Shown here piece after piece: positions 21,623-53,929 of a stretch of 64,000 bases of DNA (position 1 is the stretch's first letter; each line of letters begins with the position of its first letter). Source of the stretch: Lachnospiraceae bacterium. GTDB taxonomy: Bacteria; Bacillota; Clostridia; Lachnospirales; Lachnospiraceae. A model generated the notes under the pieces. It had not been told where the DNA came from. It did no database searches and saw nothing but the letters and a program-made list of their open reading frames with translations. Both the position numbers and the translations under genes were made by a program. The stretch lies in assembly GCA_045642225.1 (NCBI GenBank), contig JAZUIN010000024.1, positions 28,984-92,983 on the forward strand, in the 5' to 3' direction.

Positions 21623-22450
21623 TTAGTATAACTTCTCTATAATTCCATCTTCCATTTTATATGTATGCTCTTCTGCCGGAAATGTTCCATTTTTCACTTC
21701 TTCATCATACTGCTTAAATGCTTGCGTCATAATTTCTCCAACATTTGCAAAATGCTTTACAAATTTGGGCTTGAAATCTGTAAACATACCCAACATATCT
21801 TGATAAACAAGTACTTGTCCGTCACAACCTGCTCCTGCGCCAATACCAATTGTCGGAATAGAAATAGTCTCGCTCACTTTCTTAGCCAATGCCGCCGGTA
21901 CACATTCAAGAACAACTGCAAATGCTCCCGCACGCTCCACAGCTCTTGCATCATCCAAAAGCTTCTGCGCCGCTTGTTCGCCTTTACCTTGCACCTTAAA
22001 TCCACCAAATGCATTTATAGATTGCGGAGTCAAACCGATATGTCCACACACTGGAATCGACGCATCTACTATCGCTTTTATCGTCTCTTCCACTTCAACG
22101 CCACCTTCTAATTTAACGGCTTGTGCACGTCCCTCTTTCATTAATCTACCTGCATTAACTACTGCATCATATACGGATGTTTGATATGACATAAAAGGCA
22201 TATCACAAATTATCAACGCGTTCTTTGCACCTCGCGCAACTGCACTACAGTGATGAATCATGTCTTCCATAGTAACCGATATTGTATCTTCATATCCTAA
22301 CATTACATTTCCCAAAGAATCGCCTACTAGAATAGAATTGATTCCTGCTGCGTCAATAATTTTTGCTGTCGAATAATCATATGCTGTAAGCATAGTTAAC
22401 TTATCCCCAGAAGCTTTTGCTTCCTTAAATGTTACTGCTGTATTTTTCAT
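21623..22450 (-). CDS. panB: 3-methyl-2-oxobutanoate hydroxymethyltransferase
   Basis: LTAYDY, VGDSLG and KLEGG motifs. ATG at 22450 after AAGGAGAAGG. The track start is at 22483. Confidence 0.9.
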
Positions 22451-22836
22451 TCGCCTTCTCCTTATCTTATTATTTACTTCCAAAAAAGGATTATTTAATT
22501 ACATATACACTGATTGTATCTAGCTGAGCGCTAATAATGATGGTTATGTGAAAACACAACAGATTCTAAGCCACCGAAATGACTTACTAGATTTTTAGAA
22601 TACTACTTACGTCGATTCAACTTACGATAAGGCTCCACGATGGATACCTTTCATTTGTGAAATGCAAGTATATTTTCTCGTATTATATTTGACTATCATC
22701 TGATGTAGTTTCATTACAAATACCGCTCAATGATACTACCATAAATCTATCACAGATTAACTAATAAAACAATCATATCTTACAGATATATTCGTGGCAA
22801 ACACGATTCCAAGACACGAAAAAATCATAGATTTTA

Positions 22837-22865
22837 TTGCAATACGAACACACGTTTGATATAAT
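22837..22865 (+). promoter_or_regulatory. Near-consensus promoter of the small toxin-like mRNA
   Basis: TTGCAA (22837..22842), a 17 nt spacer, then TATAAT (22860..22865). The predicted start is near A22872. Confidence 0.7.
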
Positions 22866-22955
22866 GTTTTCAGGCAATACTATTAGTATGGTAGGTGGTT
22901 TCGCCCTCACTTCAGAGGGCTATGCCCTCTGGACGAAAGAAAGGAGGGATAGCTT

Positions 22956-23042
22956 ATGGTTAATTTTGCAGACTTAATACAGTTTTGTATTCTAATCGTT
23001 GCTATTGTTAGTCTTGTTTACAAGATTTCGCACAAAAAATAA
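22956..23042 (+). CDS. 28-aa hydrophobic peptide MVNFADLIQFCILIVAIVSLVYKISHKK, a candidate type I toxin (holin-like small-toxin class)
   Basis: ATG at 22956 lies 7 nt after AAGGAGGG. There is a single predicted TM helix with a basic C-terminal tail. The ORF sits in a ~245 nt transcript whose 5' and 3' ends are complementary. It is below the ORF-track length cutoff. Confidence 0.65.
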   Translation: MVNFADLIQFCILIVAIVSLVYKISHKK

Positions 23043-23118
23043 CCGCCTCTCGACCAAAGAATGCGGTTACAAAAACTAAAACTTTAGGGCGAACCATCTA
23101 TCGGTATTGCCTTTTTGT
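23031..23118 (-). ncRNA. Candidate antisense antitoxin sRNA (~85 nt), convergent with the 3' end of the toxin mRNA and overlapping it
   Basis: Own promoter (see 23125..23152). Its terminator is AACCGC-16 nt-GCGGTT (23068..23041) followed by ATTTTTTGTG on the minus strand. The body is fully complementary to the toxin mRNA 3' arm. Confidence 0.6.
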
Positions 23119-23124
23119 ATCTTT

Positions 23125-23152
23125 ATTATAACATCTGAGAAAAATTTGTCAA
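23125..23152 (-). promoter_or_regulatory. Consensus promoter of the antisense sRNA
   Basis: Minus strand: TTGACA (23152..23147), a 16 nt spacer, then TATAAT (23130..23125). Confidence 0.7.
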
Positions 23153-23210
23153 ACAGCGAAAAAGCCCTCTATAACATTATTAATTATTGACTTTACACTC
23201 CCCTATATTC

Positions 23211-23238
23211 TTGCAAATAACTTCTAATTCCATATAAT
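23211..23238 (+). promoter_or_regulatory. Candidate promoter of the hybrid histidine kinase operon
   Basis: TTGCAA (23211..23216), a 16 nt spacer, then TATAAT (23233..23238). Confidence 0.55.
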
Positions 23239-23259
23239 ATTAATTAGGAAGGTTTTTAT

Positions 23260-26151
23260 TTGCAGCAATTATATGGGGGAATGTCTATGAGATATATTTT
23301 TGCTACAATTCTTTTTGTATTTACAATAATCGCATTTTTCTATGCAACAAGAATTTTATACAACAAAAACTTCAAAACAAAAACATTTATACTTCTAACC
23401 TTTTTGTCAATCGCGAGTGCGCTATGGGGATTAGGTTATGGAATAACGCTTATTTCTAGTAGTGAGAGTTTAAGCTTTATTTTCACGCTTATCAGCTTAC
23501 TCGGTTTCATTTTATTCATAATTGCGAATCAAACAACCATTTGCATTTTCCAGAAAACTAAGTCTGCCCTCAAAACTCTTTGCACACTTCTTGCCGTCGA
23601 ATTAAGTACGGGCATAATCTTGTTCTGTGTTTTATCCACCAAGACAAACCACCAATTTAGTTACACAAATAATGAACTACACATATCATTTTCTCCGCTA
23701 GCGAATATTATATTATCAATATATATTATTGGAATTGTTGTTGCACTACTCGTCATGTCTATTAACTTGCTTTCTAAAAAATATTCAAAACGTTTTAACG
23801 CTTTAGGCAAGGCTATATTAGTTGTTATTGGCTTAATCGTTATTGGTGTAATTTCAGACATACTTATTTCTATTATTGAACCAAGCTACAATTTATCTAT
23901 CTGCACATTACTTCAATTTGTGGGCCTAGAAATTATGTATCACGCTCTACACAAATTTGGTCAAAATGCTATTCGTCTTGAAAATGTTGCTAACTACATT
24001 TTCGATAATTACGACGTTCCATTTTTCGTATTTGATGACAAACACTCACTTAAATTCATGAATAATTCTGCCATAAATAATGTTGGCTCTAACTGCAATG
24101 TCGGTGATAACGAAAAGGACGTTTGGGAAAATATATTCCACCAGTCAGTACCTGAAGACATTAATGAAAAATGCTGTGAGCTGCCACTAGTTCTTGAAAC
24201 TTCTAACGAAACAAAGCACTTCATACTTACAACAAATCCATTCTTCAACGAATATGAAGATTTTATCGGATACATTGTAACTGCGACAAATATTACATCT
24301 CAAATTGAGTCGGCAAAACACGAGGAAGCGGCTGCTATAAAAACACAATTTCTTGCAAATATGTCCCACGAAATAAGGACTCCGCTCAACTCAATTTTAG
24401 GATTTAATGATGCAATTATTCAAAACCCTGCGGACACTAACAAGGTGAAAGTTTATTCAAATAACATCCATGAAGCAGGTGAAAACTTAAAGGATATCAT
24501 CAATTCAATTCTTGACATTTCCAAGATAGAAATGGGGCAGCTAGAAATCGTATCAAAAGAATACAACTTTGTGGAGTTACTAGATAATCTTGTTAGTATG
24601 TTTGAACTTCTATCATCTAAAAAAGGCTTAGAATTCAACACCAAAATCGATTCTTCATTGCCTCAATGGATGATTGGCGATGAACGTCATTTGCGCCAAG
24701 TTCTAACAAACATTTTGAGCAACGCTGTCAAATACACTGACAAAGGTTCTATAACACTAGAAATAAAAGTACTAGATAAAAAGCCACCTTTGAACAACAT
24801 ACTATTTGCCGTTACTGATACAGGTAAAGGAATCAAGGAAGAAGATCAGGCTAAACTTTATGAAAAATTCCAACGACTAGACACAGAACATTTCAAACAT
24901 GTCGAAGGTTCAGGGCTTGGTATGAGTATTGTTCAAATGACTCTAAAAGCAATGAATAGTAAAATACAACTAAATAGCACATATAATGAAGGCTCTACAT
25001 TTTACTTTGAACTAGAGCAACTCTCTATGAAGGAAGAGACCATTGGAAATTTCCAAATACGTCGTCAAGAAAATGCTAATAAAGAATTTCAAAGTATTAA
25101 TTTCAGAGCACCTGAGGCTAAGATTCTTATTGTAGATGACGTCGAGATGAATATAGATGCTACTATTGCTCTTCTCGAATTTACAAACATGAATTTAGAT
25201 AAAGCACTTTCTGGCAAAGAAGCAATCGATAAAATCAAGCAAGAAAAATATGACATTATTTTTATGGATCATATGATGCCAGACCTAGATGGTATAGAAA
25301 CTACAAAAGCAATTCGTAACCTTTCTATCGAATACAATGATGCATATTACGCAAGTGTTCCTATTGTTGCGCTTACAGCTAATGCTATTGTAGGCATGAA
25401 GGAAATGTATCAAAATGCAAGTATGCAAGACTTTATAAGTAAACCAATTGAAATATCTTCCATTATATCTGTAATCAAACGTTGGTTACCTGAAGATAAG
25501 ATTATGGAAGCGAGCGAAGAAGAGTTGAAAACTGCCGCTTTAGCTAAATCTGGACATCTAGATTCTAGCGAAATTGTTATGCCAGACGCTTGGCCTACCG
25601 ATATAAAAGATATAGACATTACGCTAGCAAAAAAATACAACGCTAATCCAATAGGCTTAGAAAAAAATATGAAAAGCTTTGTCAATGCTTATGAAAAAAA
25701 CAAGCAAGACATTTCTAGCTTCTTTGAATCAAACGACATTAAAAATTATGTTATAAAGGTTCATGGCTTGAAAAGCACTTCAAAAATGATTGGTGCTATC
25801 GAGTTATCAGACAAAGCAAAGCACAATGAAGACATGGGCAACCAAAATGTAATGACGCAAGAAGATTTTGATGAATTAATGTCTTTGTACGATACATGCG
25901 TATCAAATATAAAAGAATATTATGATATTGATGACTTCAACACTTTACCTTCTATAAACGAAGCCGAATACAATAATATTCTTGCAGAGATAAAATCTGC
26001 TGCCGACACATTTGACGCTACAAAATTTATGGAACTAGAAGAAAGAATATCTAATCTTAGTGTTCCACCAAACTACCAAACAAAATTCGACGAAATAAAA
26101 CAGTTAGTATCAAACCTTTCTTTTACAAAAGTATCAGAAATGATTAACTAA
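23260..26151 (+). CDS. Hybrid sensor histidine kinase (multi-TM sensor, HisKA, HATPase_c, REC, C-terminal HPt)
   Basis: H-box FLANMSHEIRTPLNSILGF, N/G boxes (NAVKYT, DTGKGI, GSGLGMS), a REC domain (ILIVDDVEMN...FMDHMMPDLDG) and an HPt His in VHGLKSTSKMIGA. The track start is a TTG. The ATG at 23287 after GGGGGA is an alternative start. Confidence 0.85.
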   Translation: MQQLYGGMSMRYIFATILFVFTIIAFFYATRILYNKNFKTKTFILLTFLSIASALWGLGYGITLISSSESLSFIFTLISLLGFILFIIANQTTICIFQKTKSALKTLCTLLAVELSTGIILFCVLSTKTNHQFSYTNNELHISFSPLANIILSIYIIGIVVALLVMSINLLSKKYSKRFNALGKAILVVIGLIVIGVISDILISIIEPSYNLSICTLLQFVGLEIMYHALHKFGQNAIRLENVANYIFDNYDVPFFVFDDKHSLKFMNNSAINNVGSNCNVGDNEKDVWENIFHQSVPEDINEKCCELPLVLETSNETKHFILTTNPFFNEYEDFIGYIVTATNITSQIESAKHEEAAAIKTQFLANMSHEIRTPLNSILGFNDAIIQNPADTNKVKVYSNNIHEAGENLKDIINSILDISKIEMGQLEIVSKEYNFVELLDNLVSMFELLSSKKGLEFNTKIDSSLPQWMIGDERHLRQVLTNILSNAVKYTDKGSITLEIKVLDKKPPLNNILFAVTDTGKGIKEEDQAKLYEKFQRLDTEHFKHVEGSGLGMSIVQMTLKAMNSKIQLNSTYNEGSTFYFELEQLSMKEETIGNFQIRRQENANKEFQSINFRAPEAKILIVDDVEMNIDATIALLEFTNMNLDKALSGKEAIDKIKQEKYDIIFMDHMMPDLDGIETTKAIRNLSIEYNDAYYASVPIVALTANAIVGMKEMYQNASMQDFISKPIEISSIISVIKRWLPEDKIMEASEEELKTAALAKSGHLDSSEIVMPDAWPTDIKDIDITLAKKYNANPIGLEKNMKSFVNAYEKNKQDISSFFESNDIKNYVIKVHGLKSTSKMIGAIELSDKAKHNEDMGNQNVMTQEDFDELMSLYDTCVSNIKEYYDIDDFNTLPSINEAEYNNILAEIKSAADTFDATKFMELEERISNLSVPPNYQTKFDEIKQLVSNLSFTKVSEMIN

Positions 26152-39033: not shown

Positions 39034-41493
39034 TTAGTCAATTGAAATAACTGTGTATCCCTTAGATTCTACAGTTGCTTTTAATGTCTCATCTGACACT
39101 TCTTTATCTAAGGTTAACTCTGCTGTCTTTTTCTCATGACTGCAAACCGCTGTACTTACTCCATCAAGTGCTTCAAGTGCTTCTTTAACATTTGCCTCAC
39201 AATGTGGACACATCATACCTTCAATATTAATTGTCTTAGTCATTCTAAATTCCTCCTTCGTCTTTACAATTCTATCACTTTTCTTATTGTAAATGTTAAT
39301 TAAATTTAATCTTAGAGCATTCATAACTACACAAAAGCTAGATAAACTCATTGCTGCTGCCGCAAACATAGGATTAAGCGTTAATCCAAAGAACGGATAT
39401 AAAACACCTGCTGCAAGCGGAATTCCTATAATATTATATATAAATGCCCAGAACAAATTCTGTTTGATGTTAGTTAACGTCCCTCTACTTAATCTAATGG
39501 CCGCAACCACATCTTCTAATTTGTTCTTCATCAGAACTATGTCTGCTGCATCTACTGCAACATCAGTTCCACTTCCTATTGCAATTCCAACATCCGCAGT
39601 CATAAGAGCAGGTGCATCATTTATTCCGTCTCCTACCATTATAAGCTTACCAGTTTTCATCAACCGCTTAACATTTTCCATCTTCTCATCTGGAAGAACT
39701 TCAGCAATAACTTCATCTATTCCAGCCTGTGCCCCGATTGCTTGTGCAGTTCGCTTATTATCACCTGTCAACATTACAACACGAAGCCCCATCTTCTTAA
39801 GGCACGAAACTGCAGATACTGCATCTTCTTTCATAGTATCAGCAACCGCTATCAAACCTATACATTTACCATTATAAGCAAATAGCATAGGTGTCTTACC
39901 TTCTTTTGACAACTCATCAATTTGATCTTTATAATCGGTTGCAAATTCATTCATAAATTTAACAGAACCACCTTTAATCTCTTTCGAATCTAAGGTCGCT
40001 CCCAAACCACTTCCCGTATAGGTTGTAAAATCAGACACCTCTTTAATTTCTTTATTCTTAGCATATTCAACAATTGCTTTACCTAGAGGATGTTCACTTT
40101 TACTTTCTAGCGCTGCTGCAAGCTTGATTAATTCTGCTTCATCAACACCACTTGCAGGAATAACATCTGTAACCTTAGGTGTTCCCTCTGTAATAGTTCC
40201 TGTCTTGTCAAATACCACTATCTGAGACTTTGTTGCATTTTCTAATGCTGTAGCATTTTTGAACAAAATTCCGTTTCTCGCACCAACTCCATTTCCAACC
40301 ATAATTGCAACTGGCGTAGCAAGTCCTAGCGCACAAGGACAGCTAATTACTAACACCGAAATTGCTCTCTCTAGAACAAATGTGATTTCACTTCCTGTAA
40401 GTAACCATATGATAAATGTTAATGCTGAGATTCCCAAAACTGTTGGTACAAAAACTGCTGCAACCTTATCTGCAATACGTGCTATCGGAGCTTTGGTCGC
40501 AGATGCATCACTAACCATTTTTATAATGTTCGCAAGCGCTGTATCTTCTCCTACGCGAGTAGCCCTACATTTCAAAAATCCTGATGTATTAACTGTTGCT
40601 GTCGACACTTTATCTCCAATAGCTTTATCAACAAGAACGCTTTCTCCTGTTAGCGCAGCTTCATTCACCGCACTTTCTCCTTCTACAACAACACCATCTA
40701 CAGGAATACTTTCACCAGGTCTTACTAGAAATATATCACCAACAATAACATCTGATACATCTACTATCATCTCTTTGCCATCACGAACAATAGTTGCCCT
40801 CTCTGGCGACAATTTAAGAAGTGCATCAAGTGCATTCTTTGTTTTTCCTTTGGAAAATTCTTCAAGAGTTTTTCCTACTGTAATAAGTGTAAGAATTGTT
40901 GCTGCCGACTCAAAATAAAACTCATCCATGTATTTCATAACAAGAGTTTCATTTGCATACATTACTGCAGAAGTCATTGCAAATAATGCGTATACACTCC
41001 AAGCAAAAGACGCTGCCGCACCAAGTGCTACTAATGTATCCATATTAGGAGCTTTGTTAATCAGTGCTTTTGTGCCACTTATAAAATACTTCTGATTAAT
41101 AACCATTATTATTACAGTTAACAATAGCTGTAATAATCCCATTGCAACATGATTACCTTCGAGAAATGTTGGTAGTGGCCACCCAAACATCATGTGCCCC
41201 ATTGAAAAATACATAAGTATCAACCAGACAACTAGCGACGAAATTAGTCTCGTCAACATTTTATTGTTTCTTGTCTCTTTTTTATTTTGAACTTTTTCTC
41301 CAGGAAGGCTCGCTTCGTAACCCGCTTTTTCTACTGCATAAATTATGTCTTGTGGTTGTGCATTTCCTTCCACATTCATAGAATTCGTGAGCAAATTAAC
41401 TTGCACAGAATCTACTCCTAAAACTCCTGCGACAGCCTTCTCTACACGAGCAGAACACGCCGCACAAGTCATTCCTTTCACGTCATATTTCAT
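39034..41493 (-). CDS. copA: Copper-translocating P1B-type ATPase with N-terminal and C-terminal heavy-metal-associated domains
   Basis: GMTCAACSARVE (N-terminal HMA), TGES, CPCALGLATP, DKTGTIT, GDGINDAP, and the C-terminal HMA GMMCPHCEANV. Confidence 0.9.
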   Translation of the reverse strand: MKYDVKGMTCAACSARVEKAVAGVLGVDSVQVNLLTNSMNVEGNAQPQDIIYAVEKAGYEASLPGEKVQNKKETRNNKMLTRLISSLVVWLILMYFSMGHMMFGWPLPTFLEGNHVAMGLLQLLLTVIIMVINQKYFISGTKALINKAPNMDTLVALGAAASFAWSVYALFAMTSAVMYANETLVMKYMDEFYFESAATILTLITVGKTLEEFSKGKTKNALDALLKLSPERATIVRDGKEMIVDVSDVIVGDIFLVRPGESIPVDGVVVEGESAVNEAALTGESVLVDKAIGDKVSTATVNTSGFLKCRATRVGEDTALANIIKMVSDASATKAPIARIADKVAAVFVPTVLGISALTFIIWLLTGSEITFVLERAISVLVISCPCALGLATPVAIMVGNGVGARNGILFKNATALENATKSQIVVFDKTGTITEGTPKVTDVIPASGVDEAELIKLAAALESKSEHPLGKAIVEYAKNKEIKEVSDFTTYTGSGLGATLDSKEIKGGSVKFMNEFATDYKDQIDELSKEGKTPMLFAYNGKCIGLIAVADTMKEDAVSAVSCLKKMGLRVVMLTGDNKRTAQAIGAQAGIDEVIAEVLPDEKMENVKRLMKTGKLIMVGDGINDAPALMTADVGIAIGSGTDVAVDAADIVLMKNKLEDVVAAIRLSRGTLTNIKQNLFWAFIYNIIGIPLAAGVLYPFFGLTLNPMFAAAAMSLSSFCVVMNALRLNLINIYNKKSDRIVKTKEEFRMTKTINIEGMMCPHCEANVKEALEALDGVSTAVCSHEKKTAELTLDKEVSDETLKATVESKGYTVISID

Positions 41494-53900: not shown

Positions 53901-53929
53901 ATTATAGTGAGTTTATATTGATTTGTCAA
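53901..53929 (-). promoter_or_regulatory. Consensus promoter of the str operon
   Basis: Minus strand: TTGACA (53929..53924), 17 nt spacer, TATAAT (53906..53901). Confidence 0.7.

Follow-up and report, generated by a model that had tools for sequence, protein, structure and literature searches.

A probable type I toxin-antitoxin-like module of the TxpA/BsrG/SprG family in a Lachnospiraceae bacterium

Among described type I toxin-antitoxin systems, bsrG/SR4 of the Bacillus subtilis SPbeta prophage bears most closely on the locus reported here. Structure probing of the bsrG mRNA found its 5' nucleotides 1-35 paired with 3' nucleotides 232-262 in a long helix, P1; when SR4 binds, the 5' strand of P1 becomes single-stranded, the helix holding the Shine-Dalgarno sequence (SD) grows from 4 to 8 bp, and translation is inhibited besides decay, which proceeds through RNase III (PMC3834814). 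RatA binding leaves the 5-bp SD helix of its target unchanged and acts by decay only (PMC3834814). SprF1 works in cis where it overlaps the 3' end of sprG1, by both decay and a translation block (PMC8309996). Fozo et al. (2010) equated 'holin-like toxins' with the TxpA family, found TxpA-like open reading frames (ORFs) in Clostridiales, and described a ~110-nt antisense RNA over the 3' untranslated region (UTR) of E. faecalis EF3263 (PMC2887945). Here we describe a locus at positions 22837-23152 of a 64,000-nt stretch of a Lachnospiraceae contig (JAZUIN010000024.1; the whole stretch is called the window below) that encodes a 28-aa membrane peptide and a convergent antisense RNA.

We consider it probable that the locus encodes a type I toxin-antitoxin-like module that is intact, belongs to the TxpA/BsrG/SprG (Pfam Hol_Tox) family and is controlled as bsrG/SR4 is; its peptide is presumably toxic. 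The module is a member of a known family in a new host clade, Lachnospiraceae, and not a new kind of system. Its features are collected in Table 1.

A covarying helix between the mRNA ends

The predicted toxin mRNA folds in RNAfold (22872-23117) with a minimum free energy (MFE) of -85.5 kcal/mol and its ends closed over 27 bp. For comparison, 200 dinucleotide shuffles gave -54.5 +/- 4.5 kcal/mol, none as good as the real RNA (z = -6.88). A first-pass annotation, made from the DNA letters alone, had proposed that the two ends of this RNA close on each other; this held, with a helix of ~27 bp in place of the ~24 bp then given. The 9-nt outer arms that it had seen, 22872-80 and, just before a T tract, 23104-12, are indeed exact complements, and in the inner helix 22890-22907 pairs with 23086-23103.

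Conservation of the ORF and the paired arms among relatives had been named as a check on the prediction, and both are conserved. In an alignment of 69 diverged loci built by sequence only (MAFFT; alignment A1), the two arms fall into register, as do the SD, the ORF, the post-stop hairpin and, downstream, the -10 box of the minus strand. Unguided RNAalifold recovered four helices, namely the long-range 5'/3' helix, a helix between the SD and an upstream anti-SD (seg3:SD, columns 118-122:150-154), a small hairpin inside the ORF, and the post-stop hairpin. The arms of the long-range helix covary; a single pair shows CG:38/UA:27, for example, and two more show five pair types each. Across the closing helix 94.4% of cells are paired, versus 81.9% in shuffles, and the covariation score of 0.50 (0.27 in shuffles) was reached by 0/500 shuffles; control registers slid along the helix scored 0.04-0.18. 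The helix holds ~110 G.U cells versus 11 A.C cells, an excess that points to selection on a plus-strand RNA and against a DNA inverted repeat.

An alignment-free comparison of cognate with non-cognate arms gave the same picture. The arms were trimmed for this test, as the two promoters have -10 boxes that complement each other and inflate an untrimmed scan. Cognate arms paired at -42.6 kcal/mol versus -28.6 kcal/mol for non-cognate arms (p 2e-37), and the cognate 3' arm ranked within the top 10% for 52/69 loci. The strength of the closing-helix covariation suggests that the SD switch described below is an old and general feature of the TxpA/BsrG/SprG superfamily.

Shine-Dalgarno accessibility and the antisense RNA

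Two CCCUC elements (seg1 and seg3) lie in the 5' UTR together with two GAGGG elements, namely seg2 and the SD, all at the positions given by the first-pass annotation. The MAFFT register shifts by one base between subtypes at seg1, seg2 and seg3, so these elements were followed by per-sequence folding. For the window RNA without its 3' arm, the MFE structure places seg1:SD around the seg2:seg3 hairpin at -28.0 kcal/mol, and opening the SD costs ~2 kcal/mol. The arrangement proposed earlier, with segments 1:2 and 3:4 paired, is a near-isoenergetic alternative at -27.1 kcal/mol. In the full-length fold, seg1 leaves the SD to pair with 23086-90, and most of the SD becomes accessible. The unpaired probability of the window SD is accordingly 0.08 in the nascent RNA, 0.65 at full length, and 0.07 with the 3' arm blocked.

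The same direction is seen across the 69 loci, where the median SD unpaired probability is 0.01 nascent, 0.18 at full length, and 0.01 with the 3' arm blocked. Accessibility at full length exceeds that of the nascent state in 57/69 loci (p 8e-9) and that of the 3'-arm-blocked state in 60/69 (p 8e-10). In 66/69 nascent-state MFEs either seg1 or seg3 pairs with the SD, and in none is the SD free. A short-UTR subtype, which includes prophage copies, reaches the same outcome in a simpler way, its 3' arm pairing the anti-SD directly. In these folding models the SD is sequestered by a cis anti-SD, which would block co-transcriptional translation, and antitoxin pairing with the 3' strand of the closing helix would raise SD sequestration. 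The suggestion that the antitoxin re-occludes the SD by releasing the 5' arm is thus borne out in direction in silico, and is the mechanism probed experimentally in bsrG/SR4 (PMC3834814).

Both promoters are present as first annotated. The toxin promoter is TG-extended and matches 10 of 12 consensus positions, and transcription would start near A22872; over 86 representative loci, the end of the best -10 box lies a median of 88 nt upstream of the ATG, and 73% of loci are TG-extended. The antisense promoter is a perfect 12/12 match. Perfect TTGACA-N16-18-TATAAT promoters number 3 in the window versus 0.17 expected; the other two lie at 39906-39935 (+) and 53901-53929 (-). Among the representative loci, the antisense -10 ends a median of 90 nt past the stop codon, 79% are TG-extended, and nearly all have a TTGnnn -35 with 17-nt spacing.

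At sequence level a cis-encoded antisense gene overlaps the predicted toxin mRNA. The predicted antisense RNA is a full complement of that mRNA from the last codons through the post-stop hairpin and the spacer to the 3' arm. Its proposed AACCGC/GCGGTT terminator is present, and past this hairpin the minus strand reads AUUUUUUG, a U-tract encoded by the Lys-Lys-stop codons (23031-23040). The corresponding A-run before the hairpin is kept in 67/69 loci, and the hairpin itself covaries (GC:41/AU:28 and CG:58/UA:6). With a loop of more than 8 nt, this hairpin escapes a simple terminator scan. By analogy with SR4/bsrG, its exposed plus-strand stem-loop is a likely first-contact site for the antisense RNA. 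A conserved minus-strand ORF in the antitoxin was considered and rejected: an ORF of at least 20 aa occurs in only 20/86 loci, and the 29-aa minus-strand ORF at 23008-23097 is not conserved.

Table 1. Positions of the module's features within the window (promoter matches are out of 12 consensus positions).
Feature	Position	Strand	Details
Toxin promoter	22837..22865	+	-35 TTGCAA 22837-22842, 17-nt spacer, TG-extended -10 TATAAT 22860-22865; 10/12
Predicted toxin mRNA, ~246 nt	22872..23117	+	5'/3' helix closes the ends, with a U-tract last; predicted ends
5' arm of closing helix	22872..22908	+	outer part 22872-81, inner part 22890-22907
Outer helix strand AGGCAATAC	22872-22880	+	exact complement of GTATTGCCT at 23104-23112, which is followed by TTTTT
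seg1, CCCUC	22904-22908	+	end of 5' arm; doubles as candidate anti-SD
Four segments	22903-08, 22915-20, 22924-29, 22943-48	+	GCCCTC, GAGGGC, GCCCTC and GGAGGG, in this order
seg2:seg3 hairpin, UUCAGAGGGC / GCCCUCUGGA	22911..22933	+	seg2 is an SD mimic, seg3 a second anti-SD
Shine-Dalgarno sequence, AAGGAGGG	22941..22948	+	column identity 0.92 across 69 loci
28-codon ORF, MVNFADLIQFCILIVAIVSLVYKISHKK	22956..23042	+	one transmembrane helix and a Lys tail; Hol_Tox (TxpA/BsrG/SprG) family
In-ORF hairpin, AGUCUUG UUUA CAAGAUU	23010..23027	+	RNAfold; A1 columns 221-238
Predicted antisense (antitoxin) RNA, ~88 nt	23031..23118	-	ends predicted from promoter and terminator
Post-stop hairpin, AACCGC...GCGGUU	23041..23068	both	minus strand: antisense intrinsic terminator; plus strand: exposed stem-loop
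3' arm of closing helix	23086..23112	+	followed by UUUUUG 23113-23118; its AGGGC captures seg1
Antitoxin promoter	23125..23152	-	TTGACA 23152-47, 16 nt, TG-extended TATAAT 23130-25; 12/12

A working model would run as follows. The plus strand would give a ~246-nt mRNA for the 28-aa single-helix membrane peptide, and the minus strand a ~88-nt antisense RNA that starts at the consensus promoter and stops at the hairpin with the Lys-Lys-stop-encoded U-tract. During synthesis, and at any time when the 3' arm cannot take part, the two GAGGG elements would both be paired and the SD buried. Once transcribed, the 3' arm would zip with the 5' end into the 27-bp helix and so remove seg1; seg2 and the SD would then compete for the single remaining CCCUC, leaving the SD partly exposed. 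Since the antisense RNA matches the 3' arm without a mispair, it would displace the 5' arm and restore SD occlusion. Pairing of the two RNAs would also make a ~88-bp perfect duplex, a substrate that RNase III would probably cleave. The closing helix and its U-tract may serve as the toxin mRNA terminator; at least 4 U within 8 nt past the helix are found in 63/69 relatives.

A more detailed version of this model is tentative, and we would regard it as doubtful in its entirety. It holds jointly that the closing helix terminates the mRNA, as no other terminator follows; that the 3' arm is an anti-anti-SD activator, the reverse of hok, so that the mRNA becomes translatable only on completion; that the antisense RNA resets the switch by strand displacement; that the Lys-Lys-stop codons double as the antitoxin U-tract; and that the CCCUC/GAGGG relay is a tunable three-against-two competition found across Lachnospiraceae and their prophages.

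The peptide and its relatives

The 28-codon ORF, with its strong SD, transmembrane helix and basic tail, is where the first-pass annotation had placed it. Identity at codon positions 1/2/3 is 0.81/0.94/0.69, a coding signature that places the ORF under coding constraint as judged from the alignment. The peptide has a hydrophobic core, LIQFCILIVAIVSLVY, and a cationic C-terminal tail ending in ...KISHKK, a layout shared by ~100 relatives. Its length of fewer than 60 aa, single hydrophobic helix and cationic C-terminal end are the properties that define its class.

The resemblance to 'holin-like toxins' that had been proposed for the peptide was borne out by family searches. Hol_Tox is matched by 50/50 family members tested (best E 2.4e-9), with the window peptide alone falling 0.1 bit under the cut-off (see below); its residues 7-28 align with profile positions 10-33 of 34 of PF16935. 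On the same model, a SprG1 fragment scores 29.1 bits and the validated toxin BsrG, aligned along its entire length, 34.5 bits. The family profile finds S. aureus SprG1-31 (PDB 7NS1) with E 5.7e-6 over residues 1-23, the whole N-terminal helix, where MITISTMLQFGLFLIALIGLVIK is aligned with MVTYsDLIQFciLIVAlvGLvYK. The NCBIfam model PepG1 (type I toxin-antitoxin system toxin) is matched by 37/50 members and ComI by 30/50, all of the latter sub-threshold. On the family profile, which was built with the window peptide included, the window peptide scores 67 bits.

Relatives were collected in two ways. A search with a head-to-tail (tandem) duplicate of the 28-aa peptide as query found 43 relatives, with a core pattern of MV[TS]Y.[DE]L[IF]QF[CG][IL]LIVA..[SG]L.YKI..KK. 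A genome scan over one genome per species, with a pattern degenerate at the peptide level only, found at least 119 stretches carrying the peptide pattern. These stretches give at least ~100 distinct family peptides of 27-35 aa, and among the matches listed nearly all hosts are Lachnospiraceae; carriers include Oribacterium, Roseburia, Dorea, Butyrivibrio, Blautia, Enterocloster, Extibacter, Waltera, Acetivibrio ethanolgignens, and many metagenome-assembled genomes. A tblastn search of the peptide against plasmids and phages returned no match, for which the low-complexity filter acting on a transmembrane peptide is the probable reason.

Family members sit in housekeeping intergenic regions, in variable islands, and in a prophage found in hundreds of human-gut assemblies. 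Several genomes are multi-copy, with at least 5 copies in Oribacterium sp. NK2B42 (L035, L037, L063, L070, L080), tandem pairs ~0.4-1.5 kb apart in some contigs, and further multi-copy loci at L042, L091 and L115. Multiple copies per genome are typical of type I systems. Only one copy is present in the window, where a second was sought throughout and none was found.

The statement that gene callers miss these modules needs amending, in that many of the ORFs are called, often with wrong starts. Callers often add a false N-terminal extension through the 5' UTR and SD, and frameshifted copies are called with a C-terminal extension through the 3' arm (examples are P0003, P0006, P0024, P0027, P0005, P0010 and P0038). 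Public protein sets consequently list 'hypothetical proteins' of 39-89 aa for a 28-31-aa peptide. These wrong starts and ends, reading through the SD or past the stop, were themselves a first hint of conserved flanking RNA sequence.

Three further observations concern the family. In the in-ORF hairpin, the consensus pair at columns 226/233 is UA:37 and GC:21, a synonymous Leu change (CUU/CUG) being coupled with a Lys/Gln change (AAG/CAG); this may reflect an RNA-level constraint on the protein sequence, or merely two clades. The human-gut prophage carries a type II hammerhead ribozyme (RF02276; L009:4370-4438 (-), 62.9 bits, E 1e-10) among small early genes, ~560 nt upstream of its Hol_Tox ORF. 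In Oribacterium sp. WCC10, a Clostridiales-1 RNA (RF01699; L100:2711-2851 (+)) lies ~4 kb from a module copy, at 48.9 bits just over the gathering score of 48.

Alternative readings, genomic setting and known systems

Several results weigh against a toxin module switched as in bsrG/SR4. The window peptide scores 23.2 bits (E 6.3e-5) on Pfam Hol_Tox PF16935, whose cut-off is 23.3, and has F where the family has a nearly invariant Y. No separate terminator hairpin was found 3' of the closing helix, whose end at 23112 runs into UUUUUG, and a long-range helix would be unusual as an intrinsic terminator. A plus-strand T-run directly follows the post-stop hairpin in 24/29 A-type relatives (columns 298-310), which would make the hairpin a bidirectional terminator and end the toxin mRNA before the covarying 3' arm; such a run occurs in only 3/40 B-type loci, and the window copy, reading TACAAAAACT at 23069-23078, lacks one. 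The full-length SD is also mostly paired in many relatives, and is paired to seg3 in 29/69 MFEs; with a median accessibility of only 0.18, the 'ON' state is a relative one, and translation of the free mRNA may be only weak, as for bsrG, or may call for processing. These folding results, the seg3:SD helix that RNAalifold keeps alongside the closing helix, and the precedents of txpA/RatA, which works by decay only, and of the inhibitory hok fbi (PMC3834814) are what one would expect if the closed full-length mRNA were inert and stable and needed 3' or 5' processing for activity. The antisense RNA would then act mainly via RNase III decay, and the closing helix would serve stability and termination, not SD release. 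We consider this hok-like account unlikely, given that accessibility rises from the nascent to the full-length state and falls on 3'-arm block in most loci, that in the window seg1 moves from the SD to 23086-90 and leaves the SD mostly unpaired, and that the 3' arm of the short-UTR subtype pairs the anti-SD directly.

It is less probable still that the peptide is not toxic in its host and is instead a small membrane regulator under antisense control, such as a ComI-like inhibitor of a membrane machine. The sub-threshold ComI matches would agree with this, as would the facts that YhzE-2 was non-toxic and TxpA host-specific in Fozo et al. (PMC2887945), that some family relatives such as ComI are not obviously toxic, and that BsrG perturbs envelope synthesis without permeabilising the membrane. 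However, the ComI scores of ~22-30 bits lie far under the equivalog cut-off of 55, the PepG1 toxin model is matched by more members, and toxic genes typically show such a double translation lock, a patchy multi-copy distribution and a location on prophages and islands. Two other readings have very little to recommend them. A phage-type holin or lysis cassette remnant is suggested by the Pfam name 'holin-like toxin', by relatives matching PHROG phrog_3488 'holin' (E 3e-5) and by one prophage-borne subfamily; but the window peptide has no PHROG match, its neighbours are panB and a hybrid kinase with no endolysin or lysis cassette adjoining, the prophage copy is flanked by early genes and the terminase, and no holin is known to be paired with a convergent antisense RNA and an SD-sequestering fold-back. 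Equally far-fetched is a DNA inverted repeat in place of an RNA helix, formed by mobile element ends or by mirrored promoters under gene conversion. The arms do lie just inside two convergent promoters with mutually complementary -10 boxes, and the module is not syntenic; yet the G.U excess is sensible only for a plus-strand RNA, the arms start at the predicted +1 and finish at the U-tract, and seg1 has a second, mutually exclusive partner in the 5' UTR.

The module lies between panB and a kinase gene, flanked by panD, panC and panB (minus) and by a 963-aa hybrid histidine kinase (plus). The PanC of the window is 84-86% identical to proteins labelled 'MAG: Lachnospiraceae bacterium', while exact look-ups of its PanB, from a chosen start, and of a 100%-identical PanC matched no record. 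The pan regions of sister species (PanC 83-86% identical) carry no module within 6 kb. An empty-site comparison found the pan genes ordered differently in the sister species, with no comparable junction. In those species (L142-L147) a DUF2520/ketopantoate-reductase-like gene lies upstream of panB, and in one of them a hybrid kinase and a response regulator are co-directional with the pan genes. The window region has been rearranged, since here panB comes first and the kinase is transcribed divergently. The sequence TTGCCA-17-TATGAT at 22800..22772 is a candidate promoter for panB, and the Rfam 'pan motif' RF01749 matches weakly and partially upstream of panB at 22647-22729 (-) (22.5 bits versus a gathering score of 36.2, E 0.33), only its first hairpin aligning. 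That the antisense promoter is instead the panB promoter was rejected: it is conserved alongside the module across unrelated contexts, is served by a terminator of its own, and is distinct from the panB candidate.

A PADLOC search returned nothing. Rfam 15, run on 22400-23500 with E up to 10, gave no credible match (best overlap rli28, E 4.5), and at gathering thresholds the loci of 7 relatives gave no match on the module; the module RNAs are an RNA family without an Rfam model. A literature search on Lachnospiraceae type I systems found nothing specific and no paper on Lachnospiraceae members. The novelty claimed for Lachnospiraceae-type anaerobes was overstated: TxpA-like ORFs have been known from Clostridiales since 2010 (PMC2887945).

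For annotation, the module defines a type I toxin-antitoxin-like family of over 100 distinct peptides for Lachnospiraceae, major gut and rumen commensals with few genetic tools, whose family genes current annotation mostly misses or calls with wrong starts and whose RNAs lack an Rfam model. The covariation offers independent phylogenetic support for an SD switch driven by the antitoxin, of which bsrG/SR4 has so far been the only experimental example. If the analogy with type I systems of C. difficile holds, such modules could provide counter-selection markers or stabilisation cassettes for gut anaerobes.

The first-pass annotation had likened the locus to hok/Sok, TxpA/RatA and BsrG/SR4 alike. 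Of these, the BsrG/SR4 topology is the one found, and hok/Sok applies to the 5'-3' fold-back only. As in hok/Sok of the enterobacterial plasmid R1, the fold-back governs SD availability and co-transcriptional translation is avoided. The peptide family is unrelated, however, Hol_Tox being the only Pfam match here; Sok overlaps the 5' leader (mok), whereas the antisense promoter here is 3' of the ORF; and the closed form of hok is inert and activated by 3' trimming, whereas the closing helix here is predicted to open the SD. In txpA/RatA of the B. subtilis skin element, of the founding family, TxpA is 59 aa and no 5'/3' switch is reported. The predicted antisense RNA is similar in size and position to that of EF3263. 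With sprG1/SprF1, a TxpA/RatA homologue in S. aureus, the module shares peptide homology; it differs in having a single start, where sprG1 gives two peptides (44 and 31 aa) from one frame, and in lacking an evident counterpart of the ribosome-binding purine-rich 5' end of SprF1.

The likeness to bsrG/SR4 extends to the Pfam family, a helix closing the ends, an SD held in a helix, and a convergent antitoxin over the 3' part; the topology is the same, and in silico so is the switch. A direct profile-sequence comparison of the family with BsrG gave no significant similarity. Among the differences, bsrG has a separate terminator stem-loop (SL4) after P1, which is absent here; the antitoxin is ~88 nt and ends at the post-stop hairpin, versus 180 nt for SR4; the peptide is 28 aa, versus 38 aa for BsrG; and no duplicated CCCUC/GAGGG relay has been described in bsrG. 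In mechanism the module is nearest to bsrG/SR4, and the closest validated peptide is SprG1/PepG1.

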